Made by a program: the position numbers and the translations under genes
In this document: piece after piece, positions 1-36,400 of the stretch
Position numbering within the stretch: position 1 is the first letter of the stretch
Layout: every line of letters starts with the position of its first letter
Assembly (NCBI GenBank): GCA_003344405.1
Contig: NOWV01000141.1
Span: 1 to 64,000, forward strand
Reading direction: 5' to 3'
Source of the DNA: Trichoplax sp. H2
Lineage: Eukaryota
Length of the DNA stretch: 64,000 nucleotides
The notes under the pieces: model-generated
Seen by the model: the letters and a program-made list of their open reading frames with translations, nothing else
Databases searched by the model: none
What the model was told of the DNA's origin: nothing

Positions 1-1304
1 TTATGCAAGCAGGAATAGATGTATTTAGGATTAAAGGTCAAGTAACTTAGAATGAAAACGTATGGTTTACCAACATCGACTGAAATAACTACAAATAATC
101 AAACAGGAGCTGATAAGGTAGCATTTCTATAATGCACAAAAGAAAATCAATATAAGTAAAATAGTCTTAACATAGCCAATTAGTTATTAGATTGCATGTA
201 AGTTCTAGTTTCCAATACTTACTAGCTACAATTATGAATGTATTTATTGTTGCTAATCTACTGTTTGAGCAGTGTATACTTGAAAAGCTTATCGGACTTG
301 CACTCTGTCGTAGATTTAATACCGATATTTCATCAGTCTAATACGATGAAGAGTGTAGATACTTTATAATAGAAAAAGCAAACGCAGTTCAAGGCAACAT
401 TAGATTTCCCTCAATTCGCCATAAATTGCATGATTGAAACCGAAGAATATCTCTTTAAGCGCAGCTGATATTTAGCTCTAATATACTGCAGCTCGTCAAA
501 CCAGTAGAACATAACTTTGTATTATTTTATATGTCTGCAGCAAAATACCTTCAAAGAGATTTTTACGTTTAATACGATAGATATGTCTTTAATATCTTGT
601 ACATTTGAAGCTATCATCATTTGCTCAAATATTAGTTATATTTAGTAGAATCCACTGATTGTGATATTTTGCATACCAGTTAGATGAGTGGAACATTTAG
701 TAAATTGTAGTACCAGTACTATAGCGTATGGAAGAGATTTTGATACAATAGTTTTGAAGCAAATTATTATATAGTTATGAAGGAAAATACTGCAACAGTA
801 AGCCTGATCGGTAAGATACATAGTAAACTGGGAAGTACTTAAAGTAAAGGTACTAAATCACGTCTATGGAGATTTCTACACGCGAAATAGACATGAAAGT
901 GTGCACTGTACATCTTGAGACATATTATAAGCGCAACACATACTGACTATATATAGGTACAAATTAATTTTATAGGCGATATATACGAATATCATTTTAT
1001 TTGTAATCGTCTATCTAATATAACATTTGGATTTGTAATGCATGTAGCAAACATGTAGATTGTTAGATTAGCCTCGTTATATATTTTTCTTTAAGCTACT
1101 TATATGTTAATATATATCATTCATGCCATTATAAATTCCACCGTGCATGTTAGATGTCTTCTCATGTTTTGTAACGGTAGACGTTTGTAGTTTGATAAAT
1201 AGCCGTCCTCTAGCCATAAAAATAACCAATACATGTATCTTCGCAAATATTTGTAGCTGCTATCAAATTTGACTTATAATGTTGGTTAAAGCAGTACAAA
1301 TCTT

Positions 1305-10300: not shown

Positions 10301-13300
10301 ACCGTCTGACACTCTATATCTGCCCCAAAAGCGATACATAGTTCAGTATTCTGATAGAGGAAAGAAATTGCGAACATAATGATTATTATAAACGATCATG
10401 ATTGCTTCCATTTTGGAATCGTGAAGCACTTATTAAAATTTACTGTCTAGCATCTTATAACAGCATGAATAATCAATTACAATATAGCACTGTTGATAAA
10501 TTAATATCTGTGATATATCGAAACATAAGATAATATTTACCTCAATAGATCCTAAATCTACCGACAAATGGATTGCTGTCATACCAAATTTATTTGGAAC
10601 GCTAACATAATCTTTTTTTCCTTGTAAATTAGCTGATTAAGACATGCTCAGAGTTAGACACTGCTTATTTCTGCAAGTTCGATATGGTTTAAGCATTTAC
10701 CGAATTCCAGAATTATCTTCATAATTTCAGTCTTTCTCCGCTTCACAGCTAACAACAATGGCGTATGCCCAACTGCATCTTTTCTGTAAATATTGGCTCC
10801 ACATTGAAGCTAACGTTGAATAAAGAATTGCTATTGTCTACAATAATTCACACATTCCGTATATTTGGAGATAAGTGTAGTAAATTAAATTATAATTTGT
10901 TTTACTATACTCTTTATGAATTATCTATACGGTAAACGACTGTAATAGTTTACATAGATTAGAGTATGTTAGTGAGCCATGACTGATGATGAAACGGTGA
11001 AGTAACGTAGTATGAGTGAGTCTATTGCAACGACATATATAATAATTCTCCATGCAATAAACTACTATAACAGACGATATTCTAATTATTTTTTTACATT
11101 AATTAGGATCGAGATTCATAACAATTCGTAAGGACCTATCCATAACCTCATAATTTAATTTATAAGATATAAGTATTCACCCACAGTATATATCTAAAGA
11201 TTTAAATACGCTCTAATTTTACTTACCAATTTAGTAATAGTATCTTCTGAACAAGTTACTACTGATAAGTGCAGCGGAGTTGCCCTTTCTTTGTCGTAGG
11301 CGTTAATTATAGTTTCCGTTGCTTTAATGAGATCGGCTTCAAATAAAATTGTCTATAAAAGCAGTAGTTCAATTTCTCGTTACTTGACTATTTCTTTTTA
11401 ATTAGAGGGTACTTACGATTACGGAAAATCGAAAAGGGATAGACTACCTTGCTATGTTAAATTAAAAATCACCTTGACAGCTTCATTGCAGCCATATTCG
11501 CAGGCATAATGCAAAGGCATTCTGGCATTGCTATCAGCAACATCAAGCATAGCACCGTTTTGTACTAGGGCTTTGATTGCTACACATGCATTATACTTTG
11601 CAGCTAAATGCAATGCTGTTTCGTCGGCATTTTCAATGCTGATATCAATAGCTATATTATTGTAGGTAGTATGCATCAGTATCGACTTTTTATGGGCATG
11701 GCATATGCATATGTTGCTGTCTTATAATTGTGCAAAATAAACTATCGCCATCATTATTATCTGCCATTTTTCGATTAATTGTAATTCATGATATCTTGAT
11801 TTATCATGATAGGATAGTTCTTGAAAGCTAGAAGTTAATTATACTGTTAATAAATAGTAATAACGAATACCTGCTCCGTGATTTATTAGGCTGTTGACAA
11901 TTTCACCTTGATCATGGATAGCTGCATGATGCATAAGAGTTAAGCCATTTTCGTCTGGATAATTGATTCTATCCAAATAAAATCTTGACTTGAATGCCCG
12001 GTTCAAGTCTTTTAAGTTCCCCTTTATTGCTGCCTATATACCGTATCGAAAAAAAATGTAGGACCTGCTTTTTTAATTTGGGTTCTCGTCAATAGAAATT
12101 ATTAAAGTAGTAAACGTTGCTAAAATAAAATTATTATGATAATTAATTATATGTTCCTGAGCATTAATTTTCGTGACCTAACCATCTACAGAAATCATAC
12201 TATTGCCCGTCAAGAAGTTTTGAATGTCGATTTATTAATAAAAGTAATTAAAATCCTGCAACCAAACCATTTACTGATGGATAGTGAAGATGGCAAAGCA
12301 TGGATTGAAATCACAAATCATGAATCAACTAACTTGGACTGTTGCCTGATTATAGGCAATTTCCAGTCGACTGCATTCATTTAATATCTAATGGAATAGG
12401 TCCTAATATATGCTATTCTAAAGAGGGTGTTGATTTAAAATTCTCATATTATTGCAAGAGAAATTAAAGGTCAGCATAACAACATTTCTAATGCAGAAAT
12501 ACTAAAGACATCGTTATGATGATTGCATTGTAACGGCACGTAATCCCTTTCACACTTCATCTATGGTAATCTAAACTAAAATAAAAGCTGCTCAATATTT
12601 GAATCACTTGCATCTCCAACATTACATAGAGATGAAGTATTTTCGTACCACAATAACTATCTCATACTTCATCTACACTTATCTGAACTAGAATTAAAAC
12701 ACTTCAATATCTGAATGAATAGATCCCCAATATTATGAGAAATGAAGATCTTGTTGTGCCACAATATCCATCTCATACTTCATCTATGGTTATCTTAACT
12801 GAAATTAGAATTATTCAATATTCGAATCCATAGCATCTCTAATTTGATACAGAGATGAAGATCTTATGGATATTTAGCAATCCTTCCATTAGGGACAATT
12901 GGAAGTAAAATTTCCCCAAATTTGATTGTTCAATAAATAATGTTACAAAAGCATACTTGTATAACGTTGACAAGCCTTATACTCCTTTCAATTTAAAATA
13001 ACCTCTATATATCAAGTTAGTTTTAATGTCAGTATTCCATATTAGAGTATGTCTGAGTAGCTAGACTTACATCATATACGTCAATTCCGCTCATTTTAAC
13101 CATGGCTAAGTTTAAGCTTACTGATGATCCTACACCAATATTAGAAGTTTTTCTTTGACAAGCTCTGCCAGGTACTGAATTGAAGCTGCTAGAATGATCA
13201 GTAATTCTCTTTTTAAAGGGCCGATAACACATAGTTGTTTCTTCTTCTTGATCATTATTGGCAGTATCAGACATAGTATGGATCTTCTTTATTTTTGTCA

Positions 13301-13301
13301 T
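1305..13301 (-). CDS. TRPA1-like ankyrin-repeat cation channel, paralog A (spliced, about 25 coding exons)
   Basis: Manual splicing gives exon 1 13301-13071 (MTKIKK...DVYD|gtaagt), then ankyrin exons (TALHLAAKYN, TPLHLAALNG, NILHLAAMNN, TPLLVACEKG; about 16-17 repeats). Pre-S1 reads WEKVMSNRAFDGYNPMKRLIERLPL and LMKHPLITAYVYQKW. S1-S6 follow, with pore VLTMSVGELNY, S6/TRP-like NIAFANLLIGLAVGDINEV, and a coiled-coil exon ending TVAD-TGA at 1307-1305. All junctions checked were GT-AG and in frame. Confidence 0.93.
6048..6600 (+). mobile_element. Candidate solo LTR (553 bp) in an intron of TRPA paralog A
   Basis: Termini TGTGAT...ATCACA form a perfect 6-bp inverted repeat of TG..CA type. TATAAA at about 6374 precedes AATAAA at about 6508. 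Flanks ATTTA/AGTTA match 4 of 5 as a possible TSD. This intron is about 1.36 kb, versus about 0.28 kb in paralog B. Confidence 0.55.
7109..7365. repeat. Near-identical copy of 7999-8255, including the TRPA exon WEKVMS...PLAAE (7189-7273, equivalent to 8079-8163)
   Basis: Direct comparison shows a single-T indel difference; the copy ends at the N-gap 7366-7385. Confidence 0.95.
7386..7998 (+). mobile_element. 3' portion of a Helitron-like element (5' end lost in the gap)
   Basis: Subterminal hairpin CCGTC-AGTAAAGC-GACGG (7968-7985), then 9 nt, then terminal CTAG (7995-7998) followed by T. The duplicated copy shows the empty site ...CATCA|TTTATAC (7108/7109), i.e. an A|T insertion with no TSD. 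There is an internal ~105-bp direct repeat (about 7592-7697 and 7765-7870). Confidence 0.75.
12552..12866. repeat. Degenerate ~111-bp tandem repeat (3 units) in intron 1 of paralog A; second copy at about 15871-16168
   Basis: The motif ACTTCATCTA...CAATAT..GAAT...AGAGATGAAG recurs at about 12554, 12666 and 12777. Confidence 0.7.
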
Positions 13302-13625
13302 TTTGAAAAAAGAAATTTTAGCTACAGTATAAGCTCAGCATTAAGCTGTAGATTAGTTGATGATCGATAAAGGTTTGCTTTCTAAGCTGTTTTTACAAAT
13401 GGATTTGCAACTCAATTCAATTCAATACTAACTAGCTGCAGGAAGAGACAACTCACTTTATCTCTAACTATCGAGCAATCGTTTGTTTCGCCAGCCTACA
13501 GTGAATTATCTCGTTTCAGAATATGCGAATAAACACTATTTACTCCCTGGAACTCAAACATTTAATTAGCATATCAAGCTGAATTTATAACGATGTAGGT
13601 AATTACTTGAGGATTAAGTTCGATG

Positions 13626-13639
13626 GTTGTTATGGAGAC
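13626..13639 (-). promoter_or_regulatory. RFX X-box upstream of TRPA paralog A
   Basis: Minus strand GTCTCCATAACAAC matches GTHNYYATRRNAAC exactly, 325 bp upstream of the ATG. An identical copy lies at 16928-16941 in the duplicated block. Confidence 0.7.
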
Positions 13640-15578
13640 CAGCCTACATTCATTCTATACAACCTGCACAGATTTTATTACCTTTTTACGTTGTGAATTG
13701 GATTTCTTTGTGCCATAGCCATTGATCAATGATTATGCACTGAATAAATTCAATAAGGAATACTGCAATTCTAAAACTAAAACAGGTGTAGAATTTATTA
13801 TTATAAGCAAAGAGAATCTTATTATGCCCTATGAACTATCAAGTATAATTATCTTACGGCAGTAAGCATGTTTGTTCATGGATGACCTATAGACTAGTTT
13901 TCAAATGATTGCATACTATAAAAATCGTTGACTTTTGCGTTGATGATTTTGGATAGCTGTAAATTGGTATTACTTACGTAGATCTAGATATATTTGGCAT
14001 GTAAAGCTCAGGCTGACTAGAATAAAGACAAATGGATTACTTAACACTGACTACAATAATTACAAATAGCTATCCAGCGGCTAATAATGATGCTTTATTT
14101 GTAAAAAACAAAGAAATCAATAGAAGGGAAAATAGTCGAAATAGAGCCAATTAATTGCTACATTTCGTGCAAACTTTGATTCTAATAGCTCTTTGTAGCA
14201 ATTATGAGATTATTCATTATTGCCAATTATCAGTTTGACTATCGTAGTGGATATTAAAAACGTTTATTGGTAATATACCTTCCATGAATTTACTATCATA
14301 TTTAGGACTATATTAGAAAATTCTTGTATGATGAGAATAGTTTGCAATTGGTTATTTCTAACGATTGATAATAATATCGAAAAATCTTACCTTTCTTTCG
14401 TAAGTTTGTTATTAAGCATCCATAAGAGGTTATTACGATCGGAGGTTCAATAAAGTAACAGAAATAGACCTTCATAGTGATCAACTAACTAAGACACCTA
14501 CTCGAGGAATAATTCGTGTATACGCCCTGCAAATTGTAGAAGACAGAAGATAGTTATTGTAGATTAAACACAATCTAGCAACAGACGGTAATGTATTATG
14601 TTACTGTTGTAGTAGAAGTCCTGTAAAGTAGGAAAATAATAATTACTAACTGTCGCGACCAAAAATGTGATGCAGAAAACTACCTTAGTTTAGGTATAGT
14701 TAGTTCTATGGTAATGTCTTCTAACCGTTTTTAATCACTAAAAGCCTAGTGATATTACCTTAATTAGTTTATATACAAGAACTGCTTAACACAAAAAGAA
14801 CTTTATTAAAGAACTTTTGCTACAACCCCATCTATCTAACATTGTTAATAAATTATTAAGCTCTTTTATACTTTTTACAAGGCTAACTCGTATACGAATG
14901 ACAAGCAAAATACCTATAAAGTTGTTTAATTCCTATAATACTAATTTAATATGGGTTTACATCAAATAAAATCTTGTTATTAATGGATTTTTCACATACT
15001 CAGGTTATAATTAACATTTAGTATTATTATCTCACGTCAACCTTTATATATGTTATAACACTATGTTCAGTACTAACAGTTTCTATTAACAACATAATAT
15101 CTAGTTAATCATTCATAGTAAACAATTTCCCACAATTTACATCTTGATCATTATTCCATTAACAGTTTCGCAGACACAATTAACGCTAACAATTTTTCCA
15201 TGAACGGTCTTGTGACTCAATTTATTAGTAAATATTCCCGAAAATAATATAGCTTTCATCATTACAATATTAATCATACTGTAAAACTAATATAGCTTAT
15301 TAATTAATTATCAGATGACAGCATTTTCTTTTAGTAACTATCCGCAACTGTATCATGAGCTCGTCATGAAGCAGTGTTTATAGCCAACCTTATTTTAAGC
15401 AACTGGCCGAGTAAGGAAGATTAAAAGTATTTTTAAACTCTTGCCCTGCTGGAAATTGTATTGCAGTTCTCAATTTCGATTTGATAATTTCGAAAAGAAT
15501 CACTTTTAGCGACTGGTTAAAAAAATACTTGCAAGGTCTTTAAATGTTCTTCTATACTCTAAATTTCCTGTATCTGGT

Positions 15579-15803
15579 TGTAATGTAACTTAGTATTGTG
15601 ATTGTAGACTGTTAGCCATGTGTAGTATAATGTACGGTAGATATTTATCCTAAAAGATATTTGGTAGCTGTAACTATAGACTGTAGTGGTAGAGACTCTA
15701 TGCTAGAGTACAGATGACTATATACAGTAAGCTGTTGAGTTACTAACATGGCTATAGGTAAAAATAGAACTGTAAATCATATATTAGGATATGGTTAATT
15801 CAT
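15579..15803 (+). mobile_element. Possible LTR-retroelement 5' end running into the gap
   Basis: Similarity to the duplicated block (18462 onward) stops abruptly at GTATCTGGT|TGTAATGTAAC. The unique sequence starts with TG and ends at the N-gap. No 3' end or TSD is visible. Confidence 0.35.
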
Positions 15804-15823
15804 NNNNNNNNNNNNNNNNNNNN

Positions 15824-18462
15824 AGACATCGTTATGATGATTGCATTGTAACGGCACATAATCCCTTTCACACTTCATCTATGGTAATCTAAACTAAAAT
15901 TAAAGCTACTCAATATTTGAATCACTTGCATCTCCAACATTACACAGAGATGAAGTATTTTTGTACCACAATAACTATCTCATACTTCATCTACACTTAT
16001 CTGAACTAGAATTAAAACACTTCAATATCTGAATGAATAGATCCCCAATATTATGAGAAATGAAGATCTTGTTGTGCCACAATATCCATCTCATACTTAA
16101 CTGAAATTAGAACTATTCAATATTCGAATCCATAGCATCTCTAATTTGATACAGAGATGAAGATCTTACGGATATTTAGCAATCCTTCCATTTGGGACAA
16201 TTGGAAGTAAAATTTCCCAAAATTTGATTGTCCAATAAATAATATTACAAAAGCATACTTGTATAACTTTGACAAGCCTTATACTCCTTTCAATTTAAAA
16301 TAACCGCTATATATCAAGTTAGTTTCAATGTCAGTATTCCATATTAGAGTATGTCTGAGCAGCTAGACTTACATCATATACGTCAATTCCGCTCATTTTA
16401 ACCATGGCTAAGTTTAAGCTTACTGATGATCCTACACCAATATTAGAAGTTTTTCTTTGACAAGCTCTGCCAGGTACTGAATTGAAGCTGCTAGAATGAT
16501 CAGTAATTCTCTTTTTAAAGGGCCGATAACACATAGTTGTTTCTTCTTCTTGATCATTATTGGCATTATCAGACATGGTATGGATCTTCTTTATTTTTGT
16601 CATATTGAAAAAAGAAATTTTAGCTACAGTATAAGTTCAGCATTAAGCTGTAGATTAGTTGATGATCGATAAAGGTTGGCTTTCCAAGCTGTTTTTACAA
16701 ATGGATTTGCAACTCAATTCAATTCAATACTAACTAGCTAGAGGAAACGACAATTCACTTTATCTCTAACTATCGAACAATCGTTTGTTTCGCCAGCCTA
16801 CAGTGAATTATCTCATTTCAGAAGATGCGAATAAACACTATTTACTCTCTGGAACTCAAAGATTTAATTAGCATATCAAGCCAAATTTATAACGATGTAG
16901 GTAATTACTTGATGAATAAGTTCGATGGTTGTTATGGAGACCAGCCTACATTCATTCTATAGAACCTGCACTGATTTTATTACCTTTTTAAGTAGTGAAT
17001 TGGATTTCTTTGTGCCATAACCATTGATCAATAATTATGCACTGAATAAATTCAATAAGGAATACTGCAATTCTAAAACTAAAACAGGTGTAGAGTTTAC
17101 TATTATAAGCAAAGAGAATCTTATTTTGCTCTATGAACTATCAAGTATAATTATCTTACGGCAGTAAGTATGTTTGTTCATGGATGAGCTATAGACTAGT
17201 TTTCAAATGGTTAATTGATCAAAAATATTGGATAAGGTTCCTACTGCAAAAGTACGCTTATAGGTTACGTTTTTATATATATAGATTAGAAGAGGGATTG
17301 TCACCCACACGAGTAATACCACTGTCTACTCTCTTCTAATGTGAGTGATCAACTAACTTACTAGCTACTTAGTCACCAACTAACTATGGAGAGATACAGT
17401 AAGTAAGACTAACAAATTCCTCACAAGTATAATAAGCGGCTTGATGTAAGATTAGTTTTATGAGTTTTACTCCTATTTATACCACGAGAGTGTAGTACCT
17501 TGTCGTATAAGATGAGGTTATCTAGTGCATAAAACATAAGAAACATTGCATACTATAAAAATCGTTGACTTTGCGTTGATGATTTTGGATAGCTGCAAAT
17601 TGGTATTACTTACGTAGATCTAGATACATTTGGCATGTAAAGCTCAGGCTGACTAGAATTAAGACAAATGGATTACTTAACACTAACTATAATAATTACA
17701 AATAGCTATCCAGCGGCTAACAATGATGCTTTTCTGTAAAAAACAAAGAAATCAATAGAAGTGAAAATAGTCGAAAAAGAGCCAATTAATTGCTACATTT
17801 CGTGCAAACTTTGATTCTAATAGCTATTTGTAGCAATTATGAGATTATTCATTATTGCCAATTAGCTGTTTGACTATCGTAGTGGATATTAAAAACGTTT
17901 ATTGGTAATATACCTTCCGTGAATTTACTATCATATTTAGGACTATATTAGAAAAATCTTGTATGTGACTCTCTTAAGTATGATGAGAATAGTTTGCAAT
18001 TGGTTATTTCTAACGATTGATAATTATATTGAAAAATCTTACTTTTCTTTCGCAAGTTTGTTCTTAAGCATTCATAAGAGGTTATTACGATCGGAGGTTC
18101 AATAAAGTGACAGAAATAGACCTTCAGAGCGATCAACTTACTAAGACACCTTCTCGAGGAATAATTCGAGTATACGCCCTGCAAATTGTAGAAGACGTAA
18201 GATAGTTATTGTAGGTTAAGCACCATCTAGCAACAGACGGTAGTGTATTATTTCACAGTTGTAGTGGAAGTTCTGTTTATTTTAATCAACTGGCCGAGCA
18301 AGGAAGATTTAAAATATTTTTAAACTCTTGCCTGCTGGAAATTGTATTAAAATTCTCAATTTCGATTTGATAATTTCGAAAAGAATCACTTTTAGCGACT
18401 GGTTAAAAAATACTTGCAAGGCCTTTAAATGCTCTTCTATCTCTAAATTTCCTGTATCTGGT
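15824..18462 (-). repeat. Duplicate of 12506-15578 (paralog A intron 1 part, coding exon 1 at 16373-16603, and upstream region); probable alternative haplotype
   Basis: High identity by eye, with large indels (about 17210-17544 only here; about 14625-15389 only in the first copy). It starts exactly at the gap edge. Exon 1 differs by one amino acid (DTANN vs DNANN). No further TRPA exons follow this copy. Confidence 0.9.
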
Positions 18463-19617
18463 TTATTAATTTATCAGATAGAACTATATGAATTTTATAT
18501 TGTAGAGTAGTTTGTAAATGGGAAAGTACGAGATATTAGTGATTGCATATAAATTTTTAAATTCGGCTTAGCGATTAACGGCAACAGAATATTAGTAAAT
18601 AAGCTTTAGATAACGTTGGTGAATGATCATTTCTATTTGCTATATGTGTTTTAGAAACAAGAAAAATTTACGATAGTTTTTAGATATGATGGCATTTTAT
18701 TCAAGTAAATTGCAATGCAGATAAATTGATTACTAAGATTGACTGATACAAGTCAGAATAATTACTCGGAAAAATCATCTTAAATAAACAGCAATATTCT
18801 TATAACGTATTCGCATATAGATATAAACCAGTGACATTTTACGGCAAAGAATCTCAAGTCATCACAAGACGAGCTGCATTATAGTTAAGGAGATTATTGT
18901 TTCAATACCCGTGCATATTTCGGATACATTTTAGATATTATAAACAAACACAATATCGAAACACTAGCGGTGAAATGGTTGCGATATGCGAAAATTTACT
19001 GTAATAATCAAACGTAAGACTAATCTTTTGGTGATACTAAGCAAAATATTAATCCAGAATCTTCGTGATTAGTTCAATGTGAGCTACAGCATGGTAACAA
19101 GACTATATACTTTGTAAACATGATAGTAATGGATAAAATGATAGTTTATAACAATAAGTGAAAAAAATAACACTGCAGTGGATGATTTCGGAACACAATG
19201 ATATTTGAAACTTAATATTATGTGGTTGAGAGAATAGGTTGTAAATGAAATACTGATCAATATCACATATTGTATTAAAGAAATGCTAAAATAAGAGCAT
19301 GATAATCTATTTTACAAAGATGGTTATAATAAGAATTGATTTAAACTGGTATTTAGCAGCATTAATAATGTATTTGTTGAACATATTCCATAAATGTTAT
19401 ATATTGTGCCAGTATACACGCATGTTGCAGATATTTATGCATTTTGTAAATTAATAGTCATCTTTACATTTTGATCAACTGATCCATCTCAGAATACTTA
19501 CAGCTTATTTTAAATTAAAATCGGTTAGAATAATCTTTATTCTCTCTACGTAAAAAAAAAGTTATAAGGCATACCCTAATGCAGATTAAAATAAAAGTAT
19601 TACTTTTTCAGATAGCA

Positions 19618-22600
19618 TTAGCCGAAGGAATATTTTTCACTTCCATCGGCTTTAACTGCTTGTAAGACTTGATCAATCAGTTTTTTGGTTTCAGTGCGGT
19701 TGATATTGCCATGAAAGTTAATATCTGATTTCGCGTCTTCAATTAAATCTTTTAACCGACTTATTCTGAAGATAATTATAAAAAATTATATTTCATTAAT
19801 TATGATTTACTGAAAGTGCTTAAAACATAATAATTCTTACTCCGTTTGTTGCCTTAAAACCAGAGCTTTCAAATCTTTTAAATTAGTCTCCTGATCAGCT
19901 TCATTTTTATCTTCTTGAATGAATTTTAATTTGGCAGTTAAATTATGCCAAATTTGCTAAATTACATTATTTAAGAAAGGATAACATTTAAAGATTTTGT
20001 TAACTTTTTTAAGACATAAGCAGTAAAATGTCTACCTTTTGCGAATAGCTCGAGTGTTTATCTTTCCTGATAGTTAATCCTGGACTATGCATAATCTTTT
20101 TAATGAACATCGGATATGATTCGTATGATCCAATAATTAACTGAAAATGATTTTTAGCTTGGTTTAAGCTAGCTGTTTCTTTGACTTCATTTATATCACC
20201 GACGGCAAGACCAATCTATATATTGGATTTTAGGGCATATTTCTCAGTTAATTCAGCTACTATAATGAACTAGTATGCTCAACGACACATTAGCATTACA
20301 TCTTACTCATGTTTCGATGAAATTAGCATTTATAAAGGCTAGCTTATTTATAATTTGTTAGGTTTTCAAACATTATAATCTAAGAAATAATCCTTAATAC
20401 TAAAGGATATAACTCATTACGGCTTTACGACTATCTGAAAGAAAGGCTGTTAGTAACAAATCATATATATCAAAATAGATACTGATATAATCCTATAGAA
20501 GTCTAATAAACTAGACTAAAGAGTTATCTAGGATATATTATATCCTCATACAAAATGATTATGAAATTTAAGATTAAATCTAATCAATTACATGATAATT
20601 AACCCGCGCATAATATCTGAATTTCTTATTTCTATCAATAGAATTGCTCCATTAGCATTGGTAATAATTTTAAAGAATATATAATCTTTCTACATCTCAC
20701 CAGCAAGTTTGCAAATGCAATGTTAATAACAATAACCATAATTCCAAAAAGTAATAATTCAACTTTAAACCCAGCCAATCTTCCTGTACTACTTAAATGG
20801 CTGAAGGTATCGGCATAATTAATCTCTCCAGTCATCATGGTTAATACTGTAACTATTGCGATATCAAACCCACGGAATATTGTCTGTATCAGTAATAAAG
20901 AATTCATTTAATAAGTACAACTGCTACAATAGTGTGTTTCGATTTCTCAATGTATTGAGCTAGCGGTATCTTTTATATATTGCATCTATTACTATAACAG
21001 GAAAACATGGCTGAGAATGCGTGTTAATAATTTTCTTACCATATCGCTTAATATCATTGAAAAAGCAACAGCAAATGCGACCAGAAATAGTACAAAGACC
21101 ACTGAAGCTTTAAGAATGGTCATCATGGTGGCAAAAAACATTGATATGTATAGGCCTACACCAGGAAGACTAGAATGCAAGATTAACATCATTAAACCTA
21201 TACAGTAACAATCTAATCATTGCTTTATTGTAATCCTTAATATCATCCGTTAATTAAATGTACACACTACTCGTATATATACACGAAGCTGTATTACAGC
21301 TGTATGTATCTATTTAATACAGAGTTGGAAAAACATTACTTGAAGAAATAAATAAACCGTCATATTCTATATATCTTTATGGTTATTAGTACACTTAAAA
21401 CAGTTTTTTCTCTATTGGTAGAGTAATTTGTCTCATAACAGTGCATCTAGCAAACTATCGCGTTATACGTACTTTAATAAGTAAAGTTAACTGGCATCTG
21501 TTGTAGTAAAGGTACTTTTTTACATCCACTGAACAATAGCTTTACTTTCATAAAGCTATTTTAATGATTTGTATTATAAAGAATATGAATTCTAAGTCAG
21601 CCTTACTTTCTCAATATGTATATGATGTTGACAAATAAGCAAAGAACAAGAAGCGTTCCAATACGAATACTCCCATAATTAATCGGCTTATCGAATGGTA
21701 GAGCGTAAAGCAGACCAAAGATTGATATAAGCACTTCAAATAAAGTTTGTTTCAAGAAATAGAGGAAAATTCGCCGCTGAAAATAAGAAATTGTCAAGAA
21801 AATGCTATAATTAAAACACTTTAATTCTTCGTAAATGCTTTTTAATTCAAGTTTTATTTGGGACTTTCATGACAACTCTAAGCGCTGATGTTGATATGGG
21901 AAAAGAAGCCTAACGTTATTATTAGAGTTTGAATTAGCCCGAAGATATCAATACTCACTCCAGCCAAGAAAAAGTAGCTTAAGGTTGATAAAATTACCAT
22001 CACTGTAATAAATACAATAATGTTTCGAATAGGAACTCCGGGTTTGGCCTAATACAAAAAAAACGCAATAGATGTAATATACTGACTAGTATGCAACTGA
22101 TTTCCTCATCATTAAGGTAAGATATATCGACAATTTATATATCGAATTGGGGAAAAATGAATATAAAACAAGTTTCTATTTTATTACAAAGATTATCACC
22201 GATTTTATCGCAAACTTACTATTGAAACGTAGGAATTTGGAACACTTGAATTTTGCACAAAATTCACGAAATCTATAGTATTCATGCTAATAGGAATACC
22301 CAATCCAAATAAATAGAGAATATCTAACGCTATTTTACACGCGTATATAAGTTGAAGAGCTGCCTTCCTATGATTGCAGAGGAATGACAAATGATCAGTG
22401 TTTCTTTTTGTACTATGTAAACGATTATCATACTTAAATTTAATAATTTAAATAGGTCTGCTCGAAGTTTAATCTAATTAATTCGTATTACTGGCAATAA
22501 AGGAGATTTTGTATCATTTTTATGATTAATCTCAAAATACTATATCATACGAATAGATAGCTCTTTTATGAAACGTTAATGTTCTTATATACCATTTTGC

Positions 22601-25600
22601 ATATGCATAAGCGTTAATTAAAGGATGTTTCATCAGCCTAACACGATCAAGAGCGCAAATACTCTGCAATAGACAATGAGAAGATTGTTAAAGATAATGA
22701 CAGATCTTTCTCTACCTGCTACAAATTTCACAACTGAAAGCTAAAAATATCTCATGAGGTGCAACAGATACTTAATTTTGGTAGACAAGAGCTCATGAAT
22801 GTGACAGAATATAACTCTATAGTATTATGTCTATCTAAAGTAGAATGCCTATAAAGAGATTCTTACATTCAGTGCAATATATTTTTCCTTAACATCTTGT
22901 AAATGAGTATCTTCAGGTGATGATTCAAGGTGTGTAAAATCAAAAGCTACCTAAATTTAGAAAAATAGGAATTTAAAATAATTGTTGTCATCTTTACCAT
23001 TAAAATTATGCAAGTCAATTTATCGACCTTAAGAATATAAAATAGCTTGACATCAAATCTAAATTTATATGTAGCTAATTTACAGCTATCTAAACGCTAT
23101 TATTTAGAACTAATGCAGAGAAATTAATTAAATAAACGATTGATCTGATCCTTCTAGCTTGTGATAATAGCAACTAGATGGTATATACTCGTATATAACA
23201 ATCATACGAGTACGTTTCAGAAAATACTTTCTACCTGTTTCCATTCATCTTTACCATATTTGCTTTTCGTATATGTTATTGATTTGTCCATAACGGCCTG
23301 AATATAAATAAACCAGAAAATGAAATTAATGGGAAGTAGAGCCATAGGAAACAACCACAAGTAAAAGTATTAATGTATTGATATAATCGATTTAATTATT
23401 TTGTCTTGACTCCTAATATAGCTTAATATTTATATCTTTTGCTGATTACTGGTCTTAAATTCATAATTGTGAAAATAAAATGATTAATTTCATACATCAT
23501 TTTCGGAGCATCTCAAATTTATACCCTACAACACCACTAGTAGACCGTATACTCGATATAGCACTGTTTGATACTTACCTCTGCAACAAGGGGTAATCGT
23601 TCTATTAATCGTTTCATTGGATTATAGCCGTCAAATGATCTATTATCCATAACCCTATCCCAGCTAACATTTCATAAGGAAGTTATATTAACAAACTTAG
23701 AAATGATTCTTAATTTTAAATATATCCATATAGCTAAAGAAAATGAAATTTATTGTTTCAGCTTTAAAACAGTTCATATATTGGGAGTAGAATAATATAG
23801 TTCAATAAGTGCAAGAAATCGAGAACTTACAATCTTGTTTCAATTATAGCTAGGCCAATATCACTGTAGCGAAATTCACAAGCTATATCTAAACAGTTTT
23901 GGTCCTTATCATTTCTAACAGAAGGATCTGCACCTTTTTCCAGCAACAATTTAGCCGCTTCTATATGCCCTGACTCGCATGAAAGCACCAACGGCGTTTT
24001 CTAAGGTATAGAAATCATTTTAATGAACAAGAAAACGGGAATGTAAGTGTGATAATACTGTTACTGACGCATTCTTTCAAGCTGTACTTTTATTTAATTA
24101 ACGATAAACAGGAAGTATAACTGTGATAATGCTATCGTTGATACATTATTTTTTCGAGCTGTGCTGTAATTTTGATTTAAAGTTGATGTGGAGTTCTTCA
24201 AGCAGGATTGCAGACTAACACATTAAAGTAATTACTATCCTCTTGTGTAATAAACTTCGTTCAGTTAAATTGTAAATTGATATAATGTAATTTATAAGCT
24301 GCATATGAGTATATAAGAATAATAAGCTTTGTAATCACCTGACTACTATTTTAGTAAATAGGATTTAATAAATATTTCCTGCAATAGCTTATTTAAAAAC
24401 AATTGAGTCAGTATTGCTCTACTGAATTATAGTGGGAATTTCTCATCTTGTGCTGGATTACTTAAAGAATTGCCTTATTTTAGATAATTTAATTTAGCAT
24501 AACTTTCTTGGTTATCATTATTAATTGATATTATATTAATCTGGTCTGCATTGGTACCGCAATCCAGAATTATTCAATCCTCACCTTTCCTTCATTAAAA
24601 GCATCAACAATTGCTTCCTTTGATAGTAACAGTTGAACACTGCTGGCAAAACCATATTTTGCAGTATAGTGCAAAGGAGTCCAACCACAATTATCCCTAG
24701 TAAAGTAAAATAAGATGCCTCAAAGTGCTACCTCTATTGCCATAGTTTTAAAATCAAGTAAGTTCATTCGCGTTAATTTTAGCTTTATATTACACATTCA
24801 ATACGTATCCAAATAACATATTACATAGAGTTAGTCAAATATCCTACTTTGAATGAGCTATCATACACATAGTATTTTAATGTACATTTACCTAGTATTA
24901 ACATCAGCTCCATGTTTAATTAAATATTGTATAACTCGATTATTGCCGTTCTTTGCAGCTAAATGTAAAGGTCTCTGCCCAGTTGCGTTGCGTGAATTAA
25001 CATTAATAAACGGCATGTGATCGGTGATAATTTTAACCGTGTCGCGATGGTTATTTAATGCAGCTAAATGCAAGATGTTATTGCTATTGCTGTCTTCATG
25101 TTGCATAACAAATTCTTGAAATCGCAGAGCCATTTGCAATAATATCTGTACATTATTTAAAATATAATTGCAAGATTCTTAGTTTCTTAGTTGATGCTGT
25201 CGAATCATTTATATTTCATTCATTCAGGTATTCTCTAACAGAAGAACTTTAACATAGATTTTGATAGTATATATTCAAGAACTTATGTTAGCTACAATTA
25301 TTATTATCCTCTTACAGCTACAGATCCAGAGGATGCAGCTGTTAGTGGTGGAGTAAGCCCAAGTTTATCACGAACGTTGATGAGATCGATGCTACTGTGC
25401 TAAATGTTACAATGTAAAAAAATATTTACAATTTTGTTGCGCAACGTATCGATAATGCTATAAATCTAAAATCTCCAAACTTACTTCTATAACAGCCGTC
25501 AATGCACCTTTACAATATTTTTTTGCGATTAAATGAAGGCAGTTCCTGCCCTCTTGATCTCGTCCTTCAGTACTTGCACCATTTTGTAATAGAAATTCGA

Positions 25601-28600
25601 TTGCATCAGCGGCATCATGATAGGCTGCTGCCATTAACGGAGTTTGCAATTTAGCATCTCTGACTTCGACTAAGGCTCCCTATTAAAAGCATGATCACTA
25701 TAATTAATTTTTCTAACTTAATTTATTTGGCTTGGCCTAACTTCACAATATTTCTTGATCTTACATTATTCATTAAGAAATTCATCAATTTGACATTATT
25801 ACTTAAAGCAGCATAATGTAAAGCCGTTCTGGATTTCGAATCAGGAGTATTAACTTTAGCACCTCTTGCAATTAAAACTTCTGTAATTTCGTAATATCCA
25901 TTCAATGCAGCCAAATGTAAGGGAGTTAGAAGTTCAGACTATGCAAGTTATTTGACGAAAATATAATAACCTTAGCATTGCAATGCAAGATTAACGGTAT
26001 TACTCTATTTTAGTGAAGATTTTATTCCGATCGTGGCTTAATTTTGTGTTTAAGCTCTGATATACTTACCGATTGGCTCTCTATATCTGCTCCAAAAGCA
26101 ATGCATAATTTTGTATTCTGATGAAAGACAGAAATGTCAAATATTCTGAGCAATAGCGAATATTATGATTTCTAGTATTTCACATTTATAAAAGCAATTA
26201 ATTATTAAAATTATTATAAAAAGAATCTTATTACGGCCCCGCTTACATAACTAAGCCTAAAGCAGTAAAACTATTTTATATCGAAACATTTTAAGGCGAG
26301 AGATACCTCGACAGATCCTGAATCAACTGATAAATGAATAGCTGTCATTCCAAGTTCATTTGGAACGAGTACATAATCATGTTTTCCCTGCGTAGCGGCT
26401 AATCAAGGCAGATAAAAAATAAGTAGAGTTTCATTCCTTTATAGAATTTAACAACTGCACAATCTATCAAATATTATGATTTAGTAGTAAAACTATATTG
26501 ATAATTAGATCCAGACTTGCGCGACAGTTAGCAATGAAAATATATGTAAAATACTTCCTGTATGTCAATCTGAAGGTATGGGCTAGCAGAAACAACTCAA
26601 AGTAAGTTAGGTTAAAGCTTAAGCATTTACCAAATTCTAGTATTATTTTCATTATTTCAGTTTTCTTTCGCTTGGCTGCTAACAGCAATGCTGTATGACC
26701 AGGCACATCTTTTCTATAAATATTTGCTCCACTTCGAAGCTAACATTAAATACAGCATTATTAGCATAATATTATAGATTTAACAAAGTTAGAGATCAAA
26801 TTAGCAGAATTTAAGGCGATGTTCAGAGATTATTAATTATTAGAATAGTTAGTAAAAAGACTACTACCGAAACTGATAATTTACTCTGCGTTTTTTTTAT
26901 ATTTTCATACACTGATCAAGATTAACAGCAATTATCAACATAGATTCATGTTTGTCTGTTAAATTATTAAGCTGTAATCTATAACTAAGTTTAAAGCTAA
27001 ATTATCTAGCAGCTCAAGGAAGATTACCACCTACCTACACTAGTACTCCGTTTTGCTTATTTTTATATTTTCATGCACAAATCAAGATTAATAACAATTC
27101 TTATCGACTTATGCTTGTACGTAATAACTAAATTTAAAGCTAAATATATCTAACAGCTCAAGGAAGACTACCACCTATATTAGTAAATTTATTCTGCATA
27201 TTTTTATATTTTTATGCAAAAATCAAGATTTAAAACAATTCTTAAGTAATCTTGCTTGCTTGTCTAATCGAATATATATGTATAACATATATATGTATAT
27301 ATATATATGTTTGCATGCAGTACGCTATAGCTAAATTTACAGCTAAAAATATCTATTGGCTCCAGTTTAAAGATTAAATAAACTCTAATTTCACTTACCA
27401 GCTTTTGCACGATATTTTTAGAACAAGCTGCTACTGCTAAATGTAGCGATGTTTCTCGCTCTTTATCATAGGCGTTAATAATGGTTCGGGTCACTTTCTT
27501 GAGGTCGGCCTCATATAAAATAGTCTAAATAGATACAGTTAAATATTACATTATTTTATGATTTATTTGAATAAGAAAAGCGGAATGATTCCATAAATTA
27601 TGCCTAGATCTTTCTGAAATATCAAATTGAATATTACCTCCACAGCTTCATTACTACCATTTTCGCAGGCATAATGCAAAGGTGTTCTTAGAGTACTATC
27701 GACGACATCAAGCATGGCATCATTTTGGAGTAGAGCTTTGACTGCTGCACATGAATTATGTTTTGCAGCTAGATGTAATGGTGATACTTCGGCGTTTCCG
27801 ATGGTAACATCAATAGCTAGGTAATAGTAAAAATGCTTAGTTTAGGTAGAGATCTTTAAAAGAAGCTAATTTGTTACAATATGACGGTGATTGCAATAGA
27901 AAATAAATTGGATACAGCGATTAAGAAGTAATGATTGCTAATAGCACCTGCTTCGTGTTTTGCTAGGCAGTTAATAATTTCACCGCGATTATGGATAGCT
28001 GCATGATGCATAAGAGTTAAGCTATTTTCGTCTGGATAATTGATTCTATCCAAGTAAAATCGTGACTTAAATGCCCTTTTTAAGTCATCTAAATTTCCCT
28101 TTTTAACTGCCTAGATATGAAAGAAAAAAGTAACGAATTGATCCCTAATATAGAATAATATTAATAGCTATTTAATAATTTAATATAACTTAAATAAAGT
28201 TAGCAAGGCAATTTTTAGAATTAAGATAAAGCAATGCGGGACATTTTTAGGCCTAGCAGCACATCTCATCAGGATCGTCAATATTGATTGATTCACAAAG
28301 TACAATAAGCTTGCTGAAATACGTGCTAGCGCTTTTTTTTTCTAATAGACCGGAAAGGTGGTATCCGGTAAGAGATTTGTTATGTTTCATGCTGGAAAAT
28401 AGTTTAATTAAGGATTGTCATCATCAATCAATAAATCAGACTTTGGCATTGGATAAGCTTTTAACCGGAAAGTTATATTCTTATTGAAATTCATTGAACC
28501 AGTCTACTGCTTGATAGCTTTTCACATCAAATCTTGCATGAATTTACTTTATTTGAAATATCCGTGATAGTATATTTGCGGCGTTTTATAATAGGCTTAA

Positions 28601-30209
28601 ATGTAGTATGAAATCAATGTGCAATGCATATATACTTGAAGTAGCTACAGATCATTCTTTGGATGGTACTTGCCTGAAATAAATTTGGTTGACTAATTAA
28701 TCAGAATCGGGCATTGTTGAATAAATGTAGGAATCACTATTAAAGTTAGATGAGATAGTATAGGAAACTCAATGATTTATATTGGATTATAGTACTAAGC
28801 CGATTTTGTAGAAATAATATGAAGACAAATGCCTGCCGTGTCAGGAGATATTTACATGGCAATGGTGTGAACAGTATAGGTATATAATGCAAGATTAGAT
28901 GATTTGATGTGATGTAGAGAGAAAATTCGGAGCCAGTGTAATGATACATTAAGACAGTAGTCTATTACCTGCTTTATTGCTTCTGTTTTATTTAGATCTA
29001 TGTGCAAGCCTTTTGATGTATGTAATAAACATTACTATTACCCGAATCTACCAGTTAGAGTTTCTTTAGGAGTAACGATAGACGGTCTAATAGTAGTGTT
29101 AGTGGCTACTATAATCAAATAGAAATTTTAACCCGATCTATCGGCTGATATGTGGAAGAAGATAGCAAACACTTCACATTATACTCATTGCAAAGTTTTA
29201 ATGAAGAATAAACAACATAGAGGGATAAGAAATAGAATAATACTTAGTAAAATTTTAGCTAATTATACCAAGAACGAACTGGCGAAGAATTGATCACACG
29301 TTACCTGTACCCATATTCACTAATATGTTAAAAAGTTTATCACATCTAGATTTTTTCCTGATTATTTAGCAGAATTACTAATTCTTATACTTTATAAGTG
29401 AAAATGGAAGGCCATCTGGCGATTTTTAATCTTGTAAGGTTACAACAATTTTGATATTTCTACCTGATACATAATTATTGTAATTACGATTCCAATTGCC
29501 AGTTAATTATTAGCATTGTTATTTTTATTTTAATTGAAAAGATTTTCCTTATACTATTTTTTTCTGTAATGGCTCTGGCGAAAATTTTCAAGCTATAGCG
29601 CGTAGAAATAGAAAAGTTGTCGTCGTATTTCTAATACGAAAATCCTACAGATACACTAAAAAGGGCTGTTTCTGACTGTCAAACTATCTACGTATTTATA
29701 ATTTTATCCTCAATCATGTAAACCAAACAAAAAATTTCAACTCTTTAATTAATAATGCTTCTAGTACTACTGTTATCACTTAGGGAAAGGTGGCCTTTTC
29801 ATTTAAGATAGGTAATTAATACCATTTAACTTCATCGATAGCAAAATAAATATTATCAAAAATACATAACGTTTTAAATCCTTGTCTATCTTTCAATGTA
29901 AAGTAACGTTGTACATTAAAAGAAGGCCTTACCATTTATTCATAGTTTAAGCTCGTACATATCTTAACTTACATCATAAACGTCTATTCCACCCATTTTT
30001 GCAATAGCTAAGCTAAGGCTTACGAAAGATCCTGCAACTAAATCAGACATTTTCCTTCCATGCACTTTCTCCGATGTTGAATTTAACTTATTCGCATGAT
30101 TCGTCTTTTTCTTCCTAAAAGGCGGAAAACATACGGTCGTTCCTTCCTCGACATCACTACTATTATCGGTACTACCAGGCATAATACTGATCCTATTTAC
30201 TTTCGCCAT
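19618..30209 (-). CDS. TRPA1-like channel, paralog B
   Basis: Same exon series and phases as paralog A. Exon 1 is MAKVNRIS...DVYD, followed by ankyrin exons (ORFs 24888, 25458, 25723, 26467, 27264) and TM exons (22205, 21603, 20992, 20635). Pore VLTMMTGEINY, then IGLAVGDINEV; the last exon ends KYSFG-TAA at 19620-19618. Confidence 0.93.
26880..27245. repeat. Intronic ~150-bp degenerate tandem repeat (about 2.5 units) in paralog B
   Basis: Recurring TTTTTATATTTTCAT.CA...ATCAAGATT and TTTAAAGCTAAA..ATCTA.CAGCTCAAGGAAGA.TACCACCT. Confidence 0.75.
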
Positions 30210-30556
30210 TATAATAAGTGAAAATTTCTATTACAGCCTAAGCATAAATCCACTAGTAACTTGATTGATGATGAACAAGGAAGCTTTCTAGACTTGAGTG
30301 ACGGATAGATCCAAGTCTGTACAATTAAGTGATACTATAACTAAAAATAGGATAAAAAATAACTGGCCTATCCTATCATTAAGTTAATAGTCATTATTAA
30401 TTCTATTGCCATCAGATATGATACATTATTTTAAAACTATTCTAAACAACATCTGACTATTTACTCCATTTACTCCATTGAATCGCAACTGATTAACAAC
30501 TATTTCCGGCTAAATTTGAAAAGAAAGAGCTAATCACTCGATGAATAAGTCCAATG

Positions 30557-30570
30557 GTTGCTATGGATAC
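30557..30570 (-). promoter_or_regulatory. RFX X-box upstream of TRPA paralog B
   Basis: Minus strand GTATCCATAGCAAC matches GTHNYYATRRNAAC exactly, 348 bp upstream of the ATG. Confidence 0.72.
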
Positions 30571-31564
30571 CATGTCATATTGTCTGACAGAAATCTTCAC
30601 TTTTTGAACATTTCTTCAAGGATGAAATTGAATTTCTTTATATCAAGAACAATTAACGCCTGCAGAGTGTATTCAGCAAAGAATAATGTAAAGTTTATGA
30701 CGAACATAACGCGCCCAAGACGTACCGAATAAACTTCAGCTGTCACGGTACGAACTACCGTGAAGAAATAGCTATCTAAATTTGGTTAATATAATATAGT
30801 GATATTATATTACAACTAGTTACTTACTATAGGAATTACTCTAATTATAAATGTGTTACAGTAAATTTAATGCTGTGCTGTAATGTGCACTGATTCTGTG
30901 AATGGAGATATTGTAGTCCGACTGTGAAAAACTAGTTATCTCACCTAAGTATTTTTATAAGATGACTTGTGAATGTTAGCTGCTGTAGAAGTGTATATAA
31001 GCCCGTCAGATAGTTGAATAAAGCAGTTCTCAATTGTCTAGTTGAGTTTAACGTAGAATCAAAGGCGTCTAAATTCTTGTGAGTATGGATACTGAATCCC
31101 GGAGACTATAGTAATTTAGAGATTTGTTTTACGTTATCCTTGTCACGAAGCTGGTTTGTGACATCAGCATATTGCATAAATTATCATGTTATCGTCATCA
31201 TGAATATGTTTATTCATTCGTCGTGGTTTATATCATCAACTTGTTCTGAATAGCAAGCAATAGCTCAAAAATTTATAAATACCATTTGCAGCTTGTCAGT
31301 GTTTGTGTATACTAGAAATAGAAAGGGAGATGGCTAATAAATAAGAAATCATTATCGACAAGAATAATGCAAAATTTACGACGCATAGAATACGCCCAAG
31401 ACTTACTAAATGAACTGTGGCATATTGCACTAATTAGCATGTAACCGCTATCATAAATACACTTTTGGATTCATCATAGTTTGTCACATAAATTTGTTCT
31501 GAATAGCAAGAAATATAATAGAAGTTTATAAAAACTATTTGCAGATTGTCTTAGTTTATATGTG

Positions 31565-33404: not shown

Positions 33405-36400
33405 CTATGTAATATTTTGATTCTGCAATTTAGAAATTTTTTGTAGTTGCTCCATAATTTCTTTATTTTCAAATCTGGCAACGGTACCCTGAAAGTTGAC
33501 GTCGGATTTCACATCCTCTAATAGCTCTTTCATTCTGATCATTCTGAAGATAAACCAGGCAATATATATTATCAGACTCTGTAAATTCTAAGTTCACTTT
33601 TCCCTTTTAATACTTTGTGTCGTCAAAATCTTGTTAGAAATTACTAAATTAATAATCTATAAGATAATCTAAACTCACTCAATTTCCTGCGCAGCTACAC
33701 GATTTTTCAGCTCTGTAAGTTCCGATTCTTGACAAGTGTCTCCACTATCCTCTTTAACTGGCTTAATGTAAGCGGTGAGGAAATTCCATTGCCGCTACAT
33801 GTTAAATAAAAATTGTAATGATTATTTTTAATCCATATGAAGTGATCTAGTCTCGTTATAGATATGACATATACAAATGTATAAATTAGGTAACACTTTA
33901 TTTGCAATTCAAATTTTGACTTTACAAAGTATTTTTAGCTATAGCTGTTTCCTTTATATATTATTATTTTAATCACGCAAGAAATATTAAGAATATTAAA
34001 TTACAAAGTTGACTAACCCTTTTAAATAGGCCAGTATTCTGGTCTATCCTAAATATAAGTGTGGACTTGTACATTTTTTTTTTCAGAAATAATGGAAAGG
34101 CTTCATAAGACCCGATAATAACTTGTAATTGACCATCTAATTGGTCTAAATTTGCACTTTCTCTAACTTCATGGATATCACCCACAGCTAAACCCACCTT
34201 AAAATCAAAAAATTATGCCACAATGAAAAAGAGTTTAGCTTCTTTAACTGCACTTAAAAATCGCCATTTTTATTCGGATATTGACTATTTACCGTATTTC
34301 AACACATAAATATCAGAAACTAATGCAATCTGTTATAACATAGTTCTAGACCATAATTTCTGGTTACAATAAAATCATAAAATTTCTTAAGGAAAAATAC
34401 TAACCAATAAGTTGGCGAACGCTATATTAATAACGATGATCATGGCAACAAATAGTAGTAACTCAATCTTGAAACCCTGCAATCGCCCTGTACTTTTTAA
34501 TCTTTCAAAAGCCTCGTAATAGCCTAATTCTCCAACCATCATCGTCATAACCGTGACAACCGAATAATCAAGGCTACTAAAAAATGGCTATAGAAGCAAA
34601 TATGAAAGCAATTTCTGAATATTACACTAAGATAAGAGCTCTTTCAAAGATAAATTATTAGAAGTTCCGCAGTCAATTTGAAATTCAATATCGCCTTTAT
34701 CGTATTATGCTGTCGATTTCGAAATTACCAAATCGTTTAGGATCATGGTGAATGAAAGGGCAAAGGCAACAACGAATAACATGAACACGAAGGAAGTCAT
34801 AAAGATTGTTTTTATGATATTGAGGAACATGGCAATATACAGCCCAATGCCGTATAAACTAAAATCAATGAGAAGAAAAATTCGGTCATAAGAAATTTTC
34901 TAGCAGGTTTAAGTTTCCTAAACTTGTTTCTTATATTATGCAAGGCTATTTCTAGGATTATGCTTTAAATTTTCAATCTGGCGTTCTTTCATTACCACTA
35001 TTATTAGAACTAAAATAAAATTAATCATCGACATTATTATAAAACGATTAATTTACTTGCGTAGAACAAGGATAATGTTTACAAAAAGTAAAAACACCAG
35101 AATAGCGCCAACACGTATTACAGAATAATCGATTGGCTTATTGAACGGCAAGCAGTAAACATAACCCACAGCGGCAATAAGAACTTCAAAAAGGTTCTGC
35201 TTCATTAAATCTAGAAAGACTCTTTTCTGTTATAATTTAAAAAGGGAAAAACTTAAAATAATACTATTCTGGATTGATTAACTACAAGTCAAGCAAGTAG
35301 CTATTTCTTAAATTAGTATAAATTAAAGCTGATTAAATGTCTGATGGAGTGTCATGATATTGTCAATAATAAAATTAGATTGAAGTTATTTAACCAGGAA
35401 GTAAAAATTCTAGCTGAAGTTCTTAATTTTTATAGCCTAGATATTGCTGGCTGAGTGAATTTTATGTAATATCAGTTCAAAGCACGTATGTTTGTATAGT
35501 AGCAAAGCTTGAATAGTTCCTTTAATAGGTTGCACTTTATTAATAGCAGACACTAGATATCATCTAAAATTTATCATTCATGTTGCATCAACTTACTCCA
35601 GCAAAAAGGTAATAAAGAAGTGATGTCAGCATCGCTGTAACGGTTATAAATACAGCTAAATTTCTACCAAAAGATCCAGGAAGTTGCTAAAGCCAAAAAG
35701 AAGAATAGAGTTTAAAACAGAGGGTACGAATCTTAAAATTAAAGACTAGTAAACTACCTGTATATATTGCGTTAATATTCAAGAAACAGTCTATCAAATA
35801 CCTGTTAACCAAATTAACTATGCCATTTGCCTACGAGATCAACTGTAAAGTTAACTCCAGTCAAATTTGTACATTATTCCGTGAAGTAATTCTGCTAATA
35901 TTTTAACTCTATTTTGTTAATATACATGAGTGTGATAAATAACCGCTCTACTGCACTAAATACTCTATCGGTTTATACTTGCTAACTGTAAGCAACGACT
36001 TACTGGAGTAAAGTTCGTAAAGTATACCGCTAATTTTCTCTATATTTATCAAGCTTACTAATATCAGAAATTTACTAATGCTATTAAATACAATCATAAT
36101 CTCTTACAATCATATCATATCTATTTGTAGAACCATTATAAGACGTTGCGTTAAGAAATTCTATAGCATTTAAACCAATTGGGATAGATAAGCCAAATAA
36201 ATAAATTATGTCGGTAAATATTTTCAGGAAATACAAATAATTTAATACAGATTTCCTAAAAAGATAGCAATAAAAGTTTACAGATTAATGCTATGCCATT
36301 CCGTTTCGGTCAGTTCATGGGTTATAGATCCATAGAAATCAAACGATCGATTATAATTATCTAACGTTACTTTAATGTCTAGCTTACGATGATATTTACT

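Follow-up and report, generated by a model that had tools for sequence, protein, structure and literature searches.

How Trichoplax senses heat and food, and how it steers its cilia without neurons, is an open question, and a group of channel genes in Trichoplax sp. H2 brings it down to the level of individual promoters: are the X-boxes in front of these genes functional RFX sites, and do they connect the channels to ciliated cells? The genes lie in the first 64,000 nucleotides of contig NOWV01000141.1 (assembly GCA_003344405.1), called here the window, which carries three TRPA1-like genes on the minus strand, paralogs A, B and C. An earlier note, made from the letters alone, had proposed that A and B are expressed in ciliated cells under RFX control, in an animal that might be nerveless and driven by cilia; the host is indeed a placozoan, as judged from the named homologs. 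The analysis reported here suggests that the X-box is a selected, RFX-type site of one TRPA clade, that a promoter read by RFX and forkhead (Fox) factors may well drive the expression of this clade, and that the locus could, by extension, be a cilia-linked sensory module.

The X-boxes stand on the minus strand at 13626-13639 (A, GTCTCCATAACAAC), at 16928-16941 (A', a copy of the promoter and exon 1 of A, with letters identical to those of A, GTCTCCATAACAAC) and at 30557-30570 (B, GTATCCATAGCAAC), each being an exact match to the 14-bp consensus GTHNYYATRRNAAC, as the earlier note had reported. Its distances also hold when measured from the 3' end of the box to the start codon, namely 325 bp in A (ATG at 13301) and A' (ATG at 16603) and 348 bp in B (ATG at 30209); the 5' ends lie at -338 in A and -361 in B, so that a consensus match occurs within a few hundred bp of the start. 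The boxes of A and B differ at two positions, 3 and 10, both degenerate, in agreement with the note. The window holds four matches to GTHNYYATRRNAAC, where shuffled versions average 0.79 (at least four in 2 of 100 shuffles), the fourth (48209-48222) being inside the intron-containing RRP9 gene. Three claims of the note have to be revised. The surrounding promoter DNA is not largely diverged: the A and B promoters are collinear up to the ATG, with 282 of 517 aligned positions identical and 78% identity over the 64 bp at the box, and the boxes are therefore one inherited site. The box of A' has the same letters, as claimed, and is not an independent instance: A' (15824..18463, minus) is a 92-95% copy adjoining an N gap, and in DNA run X3 this stretch is found at single-contig depth (~31) and continues into the 3' end of B, with no second copy, so A' is rejected as an independent duplicate and is probably the second allele assembled in tandem with A. 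Lastly, the degenerate half-site ascribed to paralog C is not credible, because no X-box was found in the 1.5 kb before its ATG, where the best motif score (6.8) stays below the background median (8.5), and the homologous position in C differs between two alignments. A repeat insertion is also present in A' (~17212-17545). Contigs of run X3 span the A and B boxes at ~99% identity, a divergence too low for a conservation test, and contigs of run X16 cover both boxes at slightly higher depth, which was left unused, as contig depth cannot rank places. Beside the boxes of A, A' and B, the list of open reading frames (ORFs) gave no sign of a plus-strand neighbour gene, short exons being outside that search.

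The evidence that carries the finding comes from paralogs beyond the window. The genome holds many further TRPA genes detected by tblastn, among them D and E on contig C741 and F, G, H and the box-less I-O on contig C785, and the X-box is present in all six clade promoters whose 5' end was covered (A, A', B, D, E, G). Those of D and E were found among the listed matches of a tight form of the motif and that of G was taken from C785; these three lie 335-366 bp upstream of the start codon. In an alignment of A, B, D, E and G, 12 of the 14 X-box columns are invariant; for the promoters as a whole the figure is 189 of 469 ungapped columns. Changes in the box occur only at positions 3 and 10, and windows with at least 12 invariant columns are rare (3/630) and correspond to the X-box and to a second block, AAAGAAATYCAAT. 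In the introns of the same five genes, whose tree length is ~1.4 substitutions per site, invariance extends to 1360 of 4024 ungapped columns, and none of the 1567 ungapped 14-column windows reaches 12. With A and B given, the probability under neutrality that a loose match survives in all three of D, E and G is 0.012 at the intron rate, 0.039 at 0.75 times and 0.12 at half that rate, the two reduced rates being the fairer test because there is some constraint on the promoter as a whole and because E and G are closely related. E (C741:59803-70830) keeps its box despite two in-frame stops, and H (C785:21366), with a stop in the first coding exon, has only the left half of the box at the homologous place. 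TRPA clusters on contigs C361, C279 and C819 gave no tight match in the 90 kb of these contigs that were scanned, and two loose sites, tied to no ATG. Hence the conservation asserted by the earlier note extends to paralogs outside the window, and by comparison of these sequences the box looks selected, beyond the neutral rate among paralogs, as an RFX-type site of one TRPA clade.

A forkhead-type block accompanies the box. GAGTAAATAG, which holds the motif RYMAAYA, lies ~95 bp 3' of the X-box in all six promoters (A, A', B, D, E, G) and is invariant in them; in the window it occupies 13536..13545 (A), 16838..16847 (A') and 30457..30466 (B), all on the minus strand. Since RYMAAYA alone is frequent (4.7 per kb), the evidential weight falls on the invariance of GAGTAAATAG. 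According to the available part of Newton et al. 2012 (PMC3414849), RYMAAYA is the forkhead motif and the fly genes nan and iav need such an X-box/Fox pair.

In the explanation favoured here, which is held to be moderately probable, an RFX/Fox promoter drives the expression of the clade in ciliated epithelial and peptidergic cells. An ancestral TRPA1-like promoter would have combined a near-palindromic X-box near the transcription start with a forkhead site ~95 bp downstream; duplication would have copied this promoter, and selection would have kept both sites in A, B, D and G, and in the stop-carrying E. An RFX protein, most likely of the RFX1/2/3 type, would bind the box and act with a Fox factor to direct expression of the clade to ciliated cells, i.e. 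the lower and general epithelium for some paralogs and a peptidergic secretory type for B, where the precise cell type would be set by further factors. Cations would pass through the channels, as the kept acidic pore residue suggests, and calcium entry may alter ciliary beat or peptide release. A channel residing in the cilium itself is possible and is not implied by the promoter reading; that these channels are both localised to cilia and sensory is a prediction to which only a low probability is assigned. A similarly low credence attaches to the bolder proposal that the clade is the ciliary sensor of the walking epithelium, switched on by RFX and Fox and placed in the motile cilium, where heat, touch or chemical cues would raise calcium signals that steer or stop walking; the RFX-Fox-TRP module would then be older than neurons, and later paralogs would have lost the box on moving to single peptidergic types.

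The genome-wide behaviour of the motif bears on the RFX/Fox explanation. The background scan called for in the earlier note came out in two parts: the loose consensus GTHNYYATRRNAAC is not enriched (1364 matches vs 1754 for the reversed control), so that an exact match to it means little and it was rejected as genome-wide evidence, while the tight form GTHNCCATRRCAAC is enriched, with 118 matches in 94.9 Mb (100 of them listed) vs 38 for its reversed control. Scores obtained with an approximate X-box matrix, taking the best score in 1.5 kb upstream, are higher for 12 ciliary genes, four of whose anchors are not at the 5' end of the gene, than for 16 proteasome/CCT genes (p = 0.0014); at least 13 bits are reached by 5/12 ciliary genes, 1/16 proteasome/CCT genes and 5/44 background tiles, and the six TRPA boxes score 13.7-19.5. 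The genome contains five RFX loci (PF02257). Overall, the tight motif leans ciliary in this genome and is not exclusive to ciliary genes.

Expression was read from the available rows of the module tables S3 and S4 of Najle et al. 2023 (PMC10580291), to which all statements on modules refer, with the genes of the window assigned to identifiers through an inferred mapping by neighbour order (RBM15 = 008676, RRP9 = 008675, C = 008674, B = 008673, A = 008671). In Cladtertia H23, another placozoan, the module violet groups the syntenic PlH23_007849 (0.60) and 009095 (0.53) with RFX1/2/3 (0.59), and 15 of the 105 rows seen for this module carry ciliary or basal-body names; TMC, TRPV, TRPM and CNG channels are found there as well. 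The H23 co-ortholog 009094 belongs to the cilia module of that species (0.536). In H2, the orthogroup mates 006106 and 006107, which by order are F and G on C785, are placed in ventral and pan-epithelial modules. Among candidate partners, FOXJ1 belongs to a pan-peptidergic module in H2 and to a ciliary one in Hoilungia H13, and FOXG1 is in the module of B. A cilium is borne by the majority of the peptidergic types covered in the available part of another study (PMC12013895), among them LF, ELP, SIFGa and FFNPa cells; because most placozoan cell types bear one, expression in ciliated cells discriminates little. The T. adhaerens clade identifiers searched had no module row in the tables. Individual TRPA paralogs are assigned to different modules, of peptidergic, epithelial, lipophil and fibre type (60 of the 105 TRPA-named rows seen), a possible cell-type code.

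Several observations weigh against the RFX/Fox explanation. As regards the motif, the tight form was derived post hoc from the boxes of A and B, and reversing a pattern gives only an imperfect null, as the reversed loose pattern has more matches than the forward one. An exact loose match occurs in only 2/13 ciliary upstream regions (0/16 for proteasome/CCT). From 30 tight-site loci, 26 were left once the three window sites and one overlap had been dropped, and the comparison of their 130 ORFs with Pfam gave a match at 12/26 loci, with only ~5 families regarded as ciliary (LKAAEAR, ASH, p25-alpha/DCX, cytochrome-b5-like and LRR_9); the others include HSP70, BRCA2, HR1, Jagunal and SCOC. Moreover, the second block AAAGAAATYCAAT equals the X-box in conservation, which puts the entire stretch under constraint. 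As regards expression, B is assigned to the GPCR-rich peptidergic-omicron module (0.707), the H2 module rows do not include A, C or 005810, and none of the H2 genes mapped to the clade appears in the cilia module TrH2.yellow among the available rows. Neighbour order equates 006110-006116 with paralogs on C785 that lack an exact box (I-O); these genes are found in peptidergic modules, and one of them, 006115, shares the omicron module with B; the box is therefore not needed there. The violet module, left unannotated by its authors, includes long non-ciliary genes, and the memberships cited reach only 0.53-0.60. Furthermore, RWamide mucocytes lack a cilium in the available account (PMC12013895), and the omicron cells are not matched to a morphological type. 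The published single-cell evidence is thus mixed: of the proposal that RFX controls these genes in ciliated cells, the part that stands is the association of an H23 syntenic ortholog with RFX1/2/3, and the part that fails to find support is the H2 cilia module, from which the mapped clade genes are absent and B is peptidergic.

The peptidergic placement of B gives substance to a different use of the same site, in which RFX4/6-type factors read the box within a secretory (peptidergic or gland) programme and the channels trigger peptide release at the cell surface, unlinked to ciliary genes. RFX6 acts in vertebrate endocrine cells, and the available module rows put placozoan RFX4/6 genes in peptidergic or gland modules (TrH2.black, HoiH23.white, HoiH23.salmon and Hhon.greenyellow), in line with the GPCR-rich module of B and with the absence of mapped H2 clade members from the cilia module. 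Against it, the orthologs in H23 fall together with RFX1/2/3 and ciliary genes, two members of the clade in H2 belong to epithelial modules and the RFX4/6 modules differ from omicron; this alternative is unlikely, and among the rivals of the RFX/Fox explanation it fares best.

The sequence around the transcription start bears on another alternative. The second block AAAGAAATYCAAT lies on the minus strand at 13697..13709 in A, 16999-17011 in A' and 30627..30639 in B, with 12/14 columns invariant, equal to the X-box, and may hold a CCAAT-like site. One RNA contig of run X20 covers 29999-30283, with 30 letters left over, and ends exactly at the AG at 30285-30284, and a GT lies 20 nt 3' of the X-box in A, A', B, D and G, not in E; the two together point to a 5'-UTR intron in B (30284..30537, minus), whose acceptor rests on this contig and whose donor is deduced from the conserved GT. 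A short non-coding first exon would therefore end just after the X-box, and the box, ~20 nt 5' of the putative donor in B, would be near the transcription start, with the proviso that RNA contigs cannot show transcription starts. The stretch could thus be conserved as a core promoter, as a short first exon, for its splice donor or for the site of a different factor, its likeness to an X-box being incidental. The continuation of the conservation for ~20 nt beyond the box to the conserved GT, the RNA contig and the equally invariant second block speak for this, but a splice donor leaves the letters 20-33 nt upstream unexplained, changes within the box have hit only tolerated positions, at least four times, and the tight form is scarce, with its 118 matches in 94.9 Mb. 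A coding exon or a conserved upstream ORF (uORF) over the box was also considered and rejected, as the in-frame ATG is present only in B and that frame has a stop in E and G. On these grounds an incidental likeness is less likely still than the RFX4/6 alternative. A chance match passively inherited from an ancestral promoter by recent duplicates, which would fit the homology of the promoters (55-89% identity), the ~0.7% of 500-bp promoters matching the loose pattern by chance and the persistence of the box in the stop-bearing E, whose split from G is recent, is very improbable in view of the large intron divergence noted above, the low probability under neutrality (0.002-0.03) of a loose match surviving in B when A has one, and the lack of any intron window as invariant.

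Some further features of the B promoter were recorded. In B only, an ATG directly precedes the box (window 30572-30209, minus) and, after the putative splice, its open frame ends in a TAA overlapping the main ATG, an arrangement not kept in other paralogs. A high-copy repeat at 30741-31163, 170 bp upstream of the B box, has a DNA depth of thousands vs ~30 and recurs at 96% identity in an intron on C741.

The channel genes themselves are TRPA-type, as the earlier note had recognised. A, B and C have Pfam ankyrin and ion-transport domains, and human TRPA1 aligns collinearly with B in one stretch over residues 106-1033 (E 8e-84), vs a best stretch of only 144-580 for NompC; two non-placozoan relatives were returned in the protein comparison. 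Paralog B (19621..30209, minus; P0008/RDD39281.1) encodes 1136 aa in 25 coding exon blocks, equals the Trichoplax sp. H2 protein RDD39281.1 exon by exon and is spliced at GT-AG introns in the RNA runs X19 and X20. Both the acidic residue of the pore and the segment LIGLAVGDI are retained in it. Human TRPA1 uses C621, C641 and C665 in electrophile sensing; no cysteine of B aligns to any of the three, and the same electrophile chemistry therefore cannot be assumed. Paralog A (1329..13301, minus), delineated by tblastn as an ankyrin and ion-transport gene, reads without an internal stop through the 25 exon blocks that align with B; it contains an N gap (7366-7385) flanked by identical 257-bp copies (7109-7365 and 7999-8255) that resemble a scaffold overlap artefact. 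Paralog C (33432..43909, minus; protein P0009) is more divergent. The T. adhaerens protein clustering with B is XP_002112602, and XP_002112601, named as an extra TRP hit in the available part of a thermotaxis paper (PMC10498350), may be a neighbour in the same array.

The array probably extends beyond the window, since the contig start (16-268) is similar (69%) to the DNA 700-950 bp upstream of A, and another paralog promoter would thus lie just beyond the edge. C785 begins within a paralog (1-4000) and may form a single array with the contig of the window, of a dozen or more TRPA genes. The small contig C845:1-3877 carries a 95% protein copy of the 3' end of B, probably from the other haplotype, and may split single-cell reads from B. 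After C, an RRP9 gene (+) and an RBM15-type gene (-) occupy 47139-54252, followed by an irregular short-repeat array with raised G+C (55140-56298); in H23, RBM15, IFRD and a TRPA gene are likewise near-neighbours by identifier in the available tables.

The available text of the thermotaxis paper gives the earlier-known TRP genes without any TRPA and states that the heat-sensing cells of Trichoplax are not known (PMC10498350), a review, in its accessible part, describes TRPA channels as polymodal and TRPN as missing from placozoans (PMC11526382), and dozens of TRPA-named genes are present in the H2 rows seen (PMC10580291). If the RFX/Fox explanation is true, the pairing described for fly TRPV channels extends to TRPA in an animal without nerves; should the channels prove not to be ciliary, the clade is an ordinary RFX target in an animal of mostly ciliated cells, and if the ciliary-sensor proposal is true, an RFX-Fox-TRP module operates in a neuron-free epithelium and predates neurons. 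In practical terms, the conserved X-box/forkhead pair singles out one TRPA clade as the first sensory candidates and gives the exact sites to mutate. No paper tying X-boxes to placozoan TRPA genes was found in a literature search that left most subscription papers outside its scope. The expansion of the TRPA1 family in Trichoplax H2 is reportedly the subject of a Russian-language paper, and X-boxes across animals are said to be treated by Piasecki et al. 2010.

The locus resembles, in part, four known systems. The closest is that of Drosophila nanchung and inactive (Rfx with Fd3F; available part of PMC3414849), in which a TRP gene likewise carries one X-box and a nearby RYMAAYA within ~600 bp of the ATG; there the channels are TRPV and are located in chordotonal cilia, and binding and reporter mutations were shown, whereas the placozoan genes are TRPA1-like, belong to a neuron-free host, have their sites ~95 bp apart and are known from sequence and published tables. 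In the DAF-19M module of C. elegans with osm-9 (bioRxiv 10.1101/2021.02.03.429678, as far as available), a TRP channel is likewise under RFX control in some of the ciliated sensory cells, but the boxes are variants, the authors found none at osm-9 itself, the channel is a TRPV and the cells are neurons. Compared with the placozoan ciliary module (Najle et al. 2023, PMC10580291, available rows), the clade shares the co-expression linked to RFX1/2/3 in H23, with one co-ortholog as a member, and differs in that the module does not include the H2 genes assigned to the window. Vertebrate TRPA1 (PDB 9m8n and 6pqq), lastly, is the counterpart of the channels themselves, collinear over ~930 residues with the ankyrin array, the six-helix region, the pore motif MMxG(D/E)INY and LIGLAVGDI, from which placozoan B departs in lacking the cysteines at C621/C641/C665 and in belonging to a gene expanded into many tandem paralogs.

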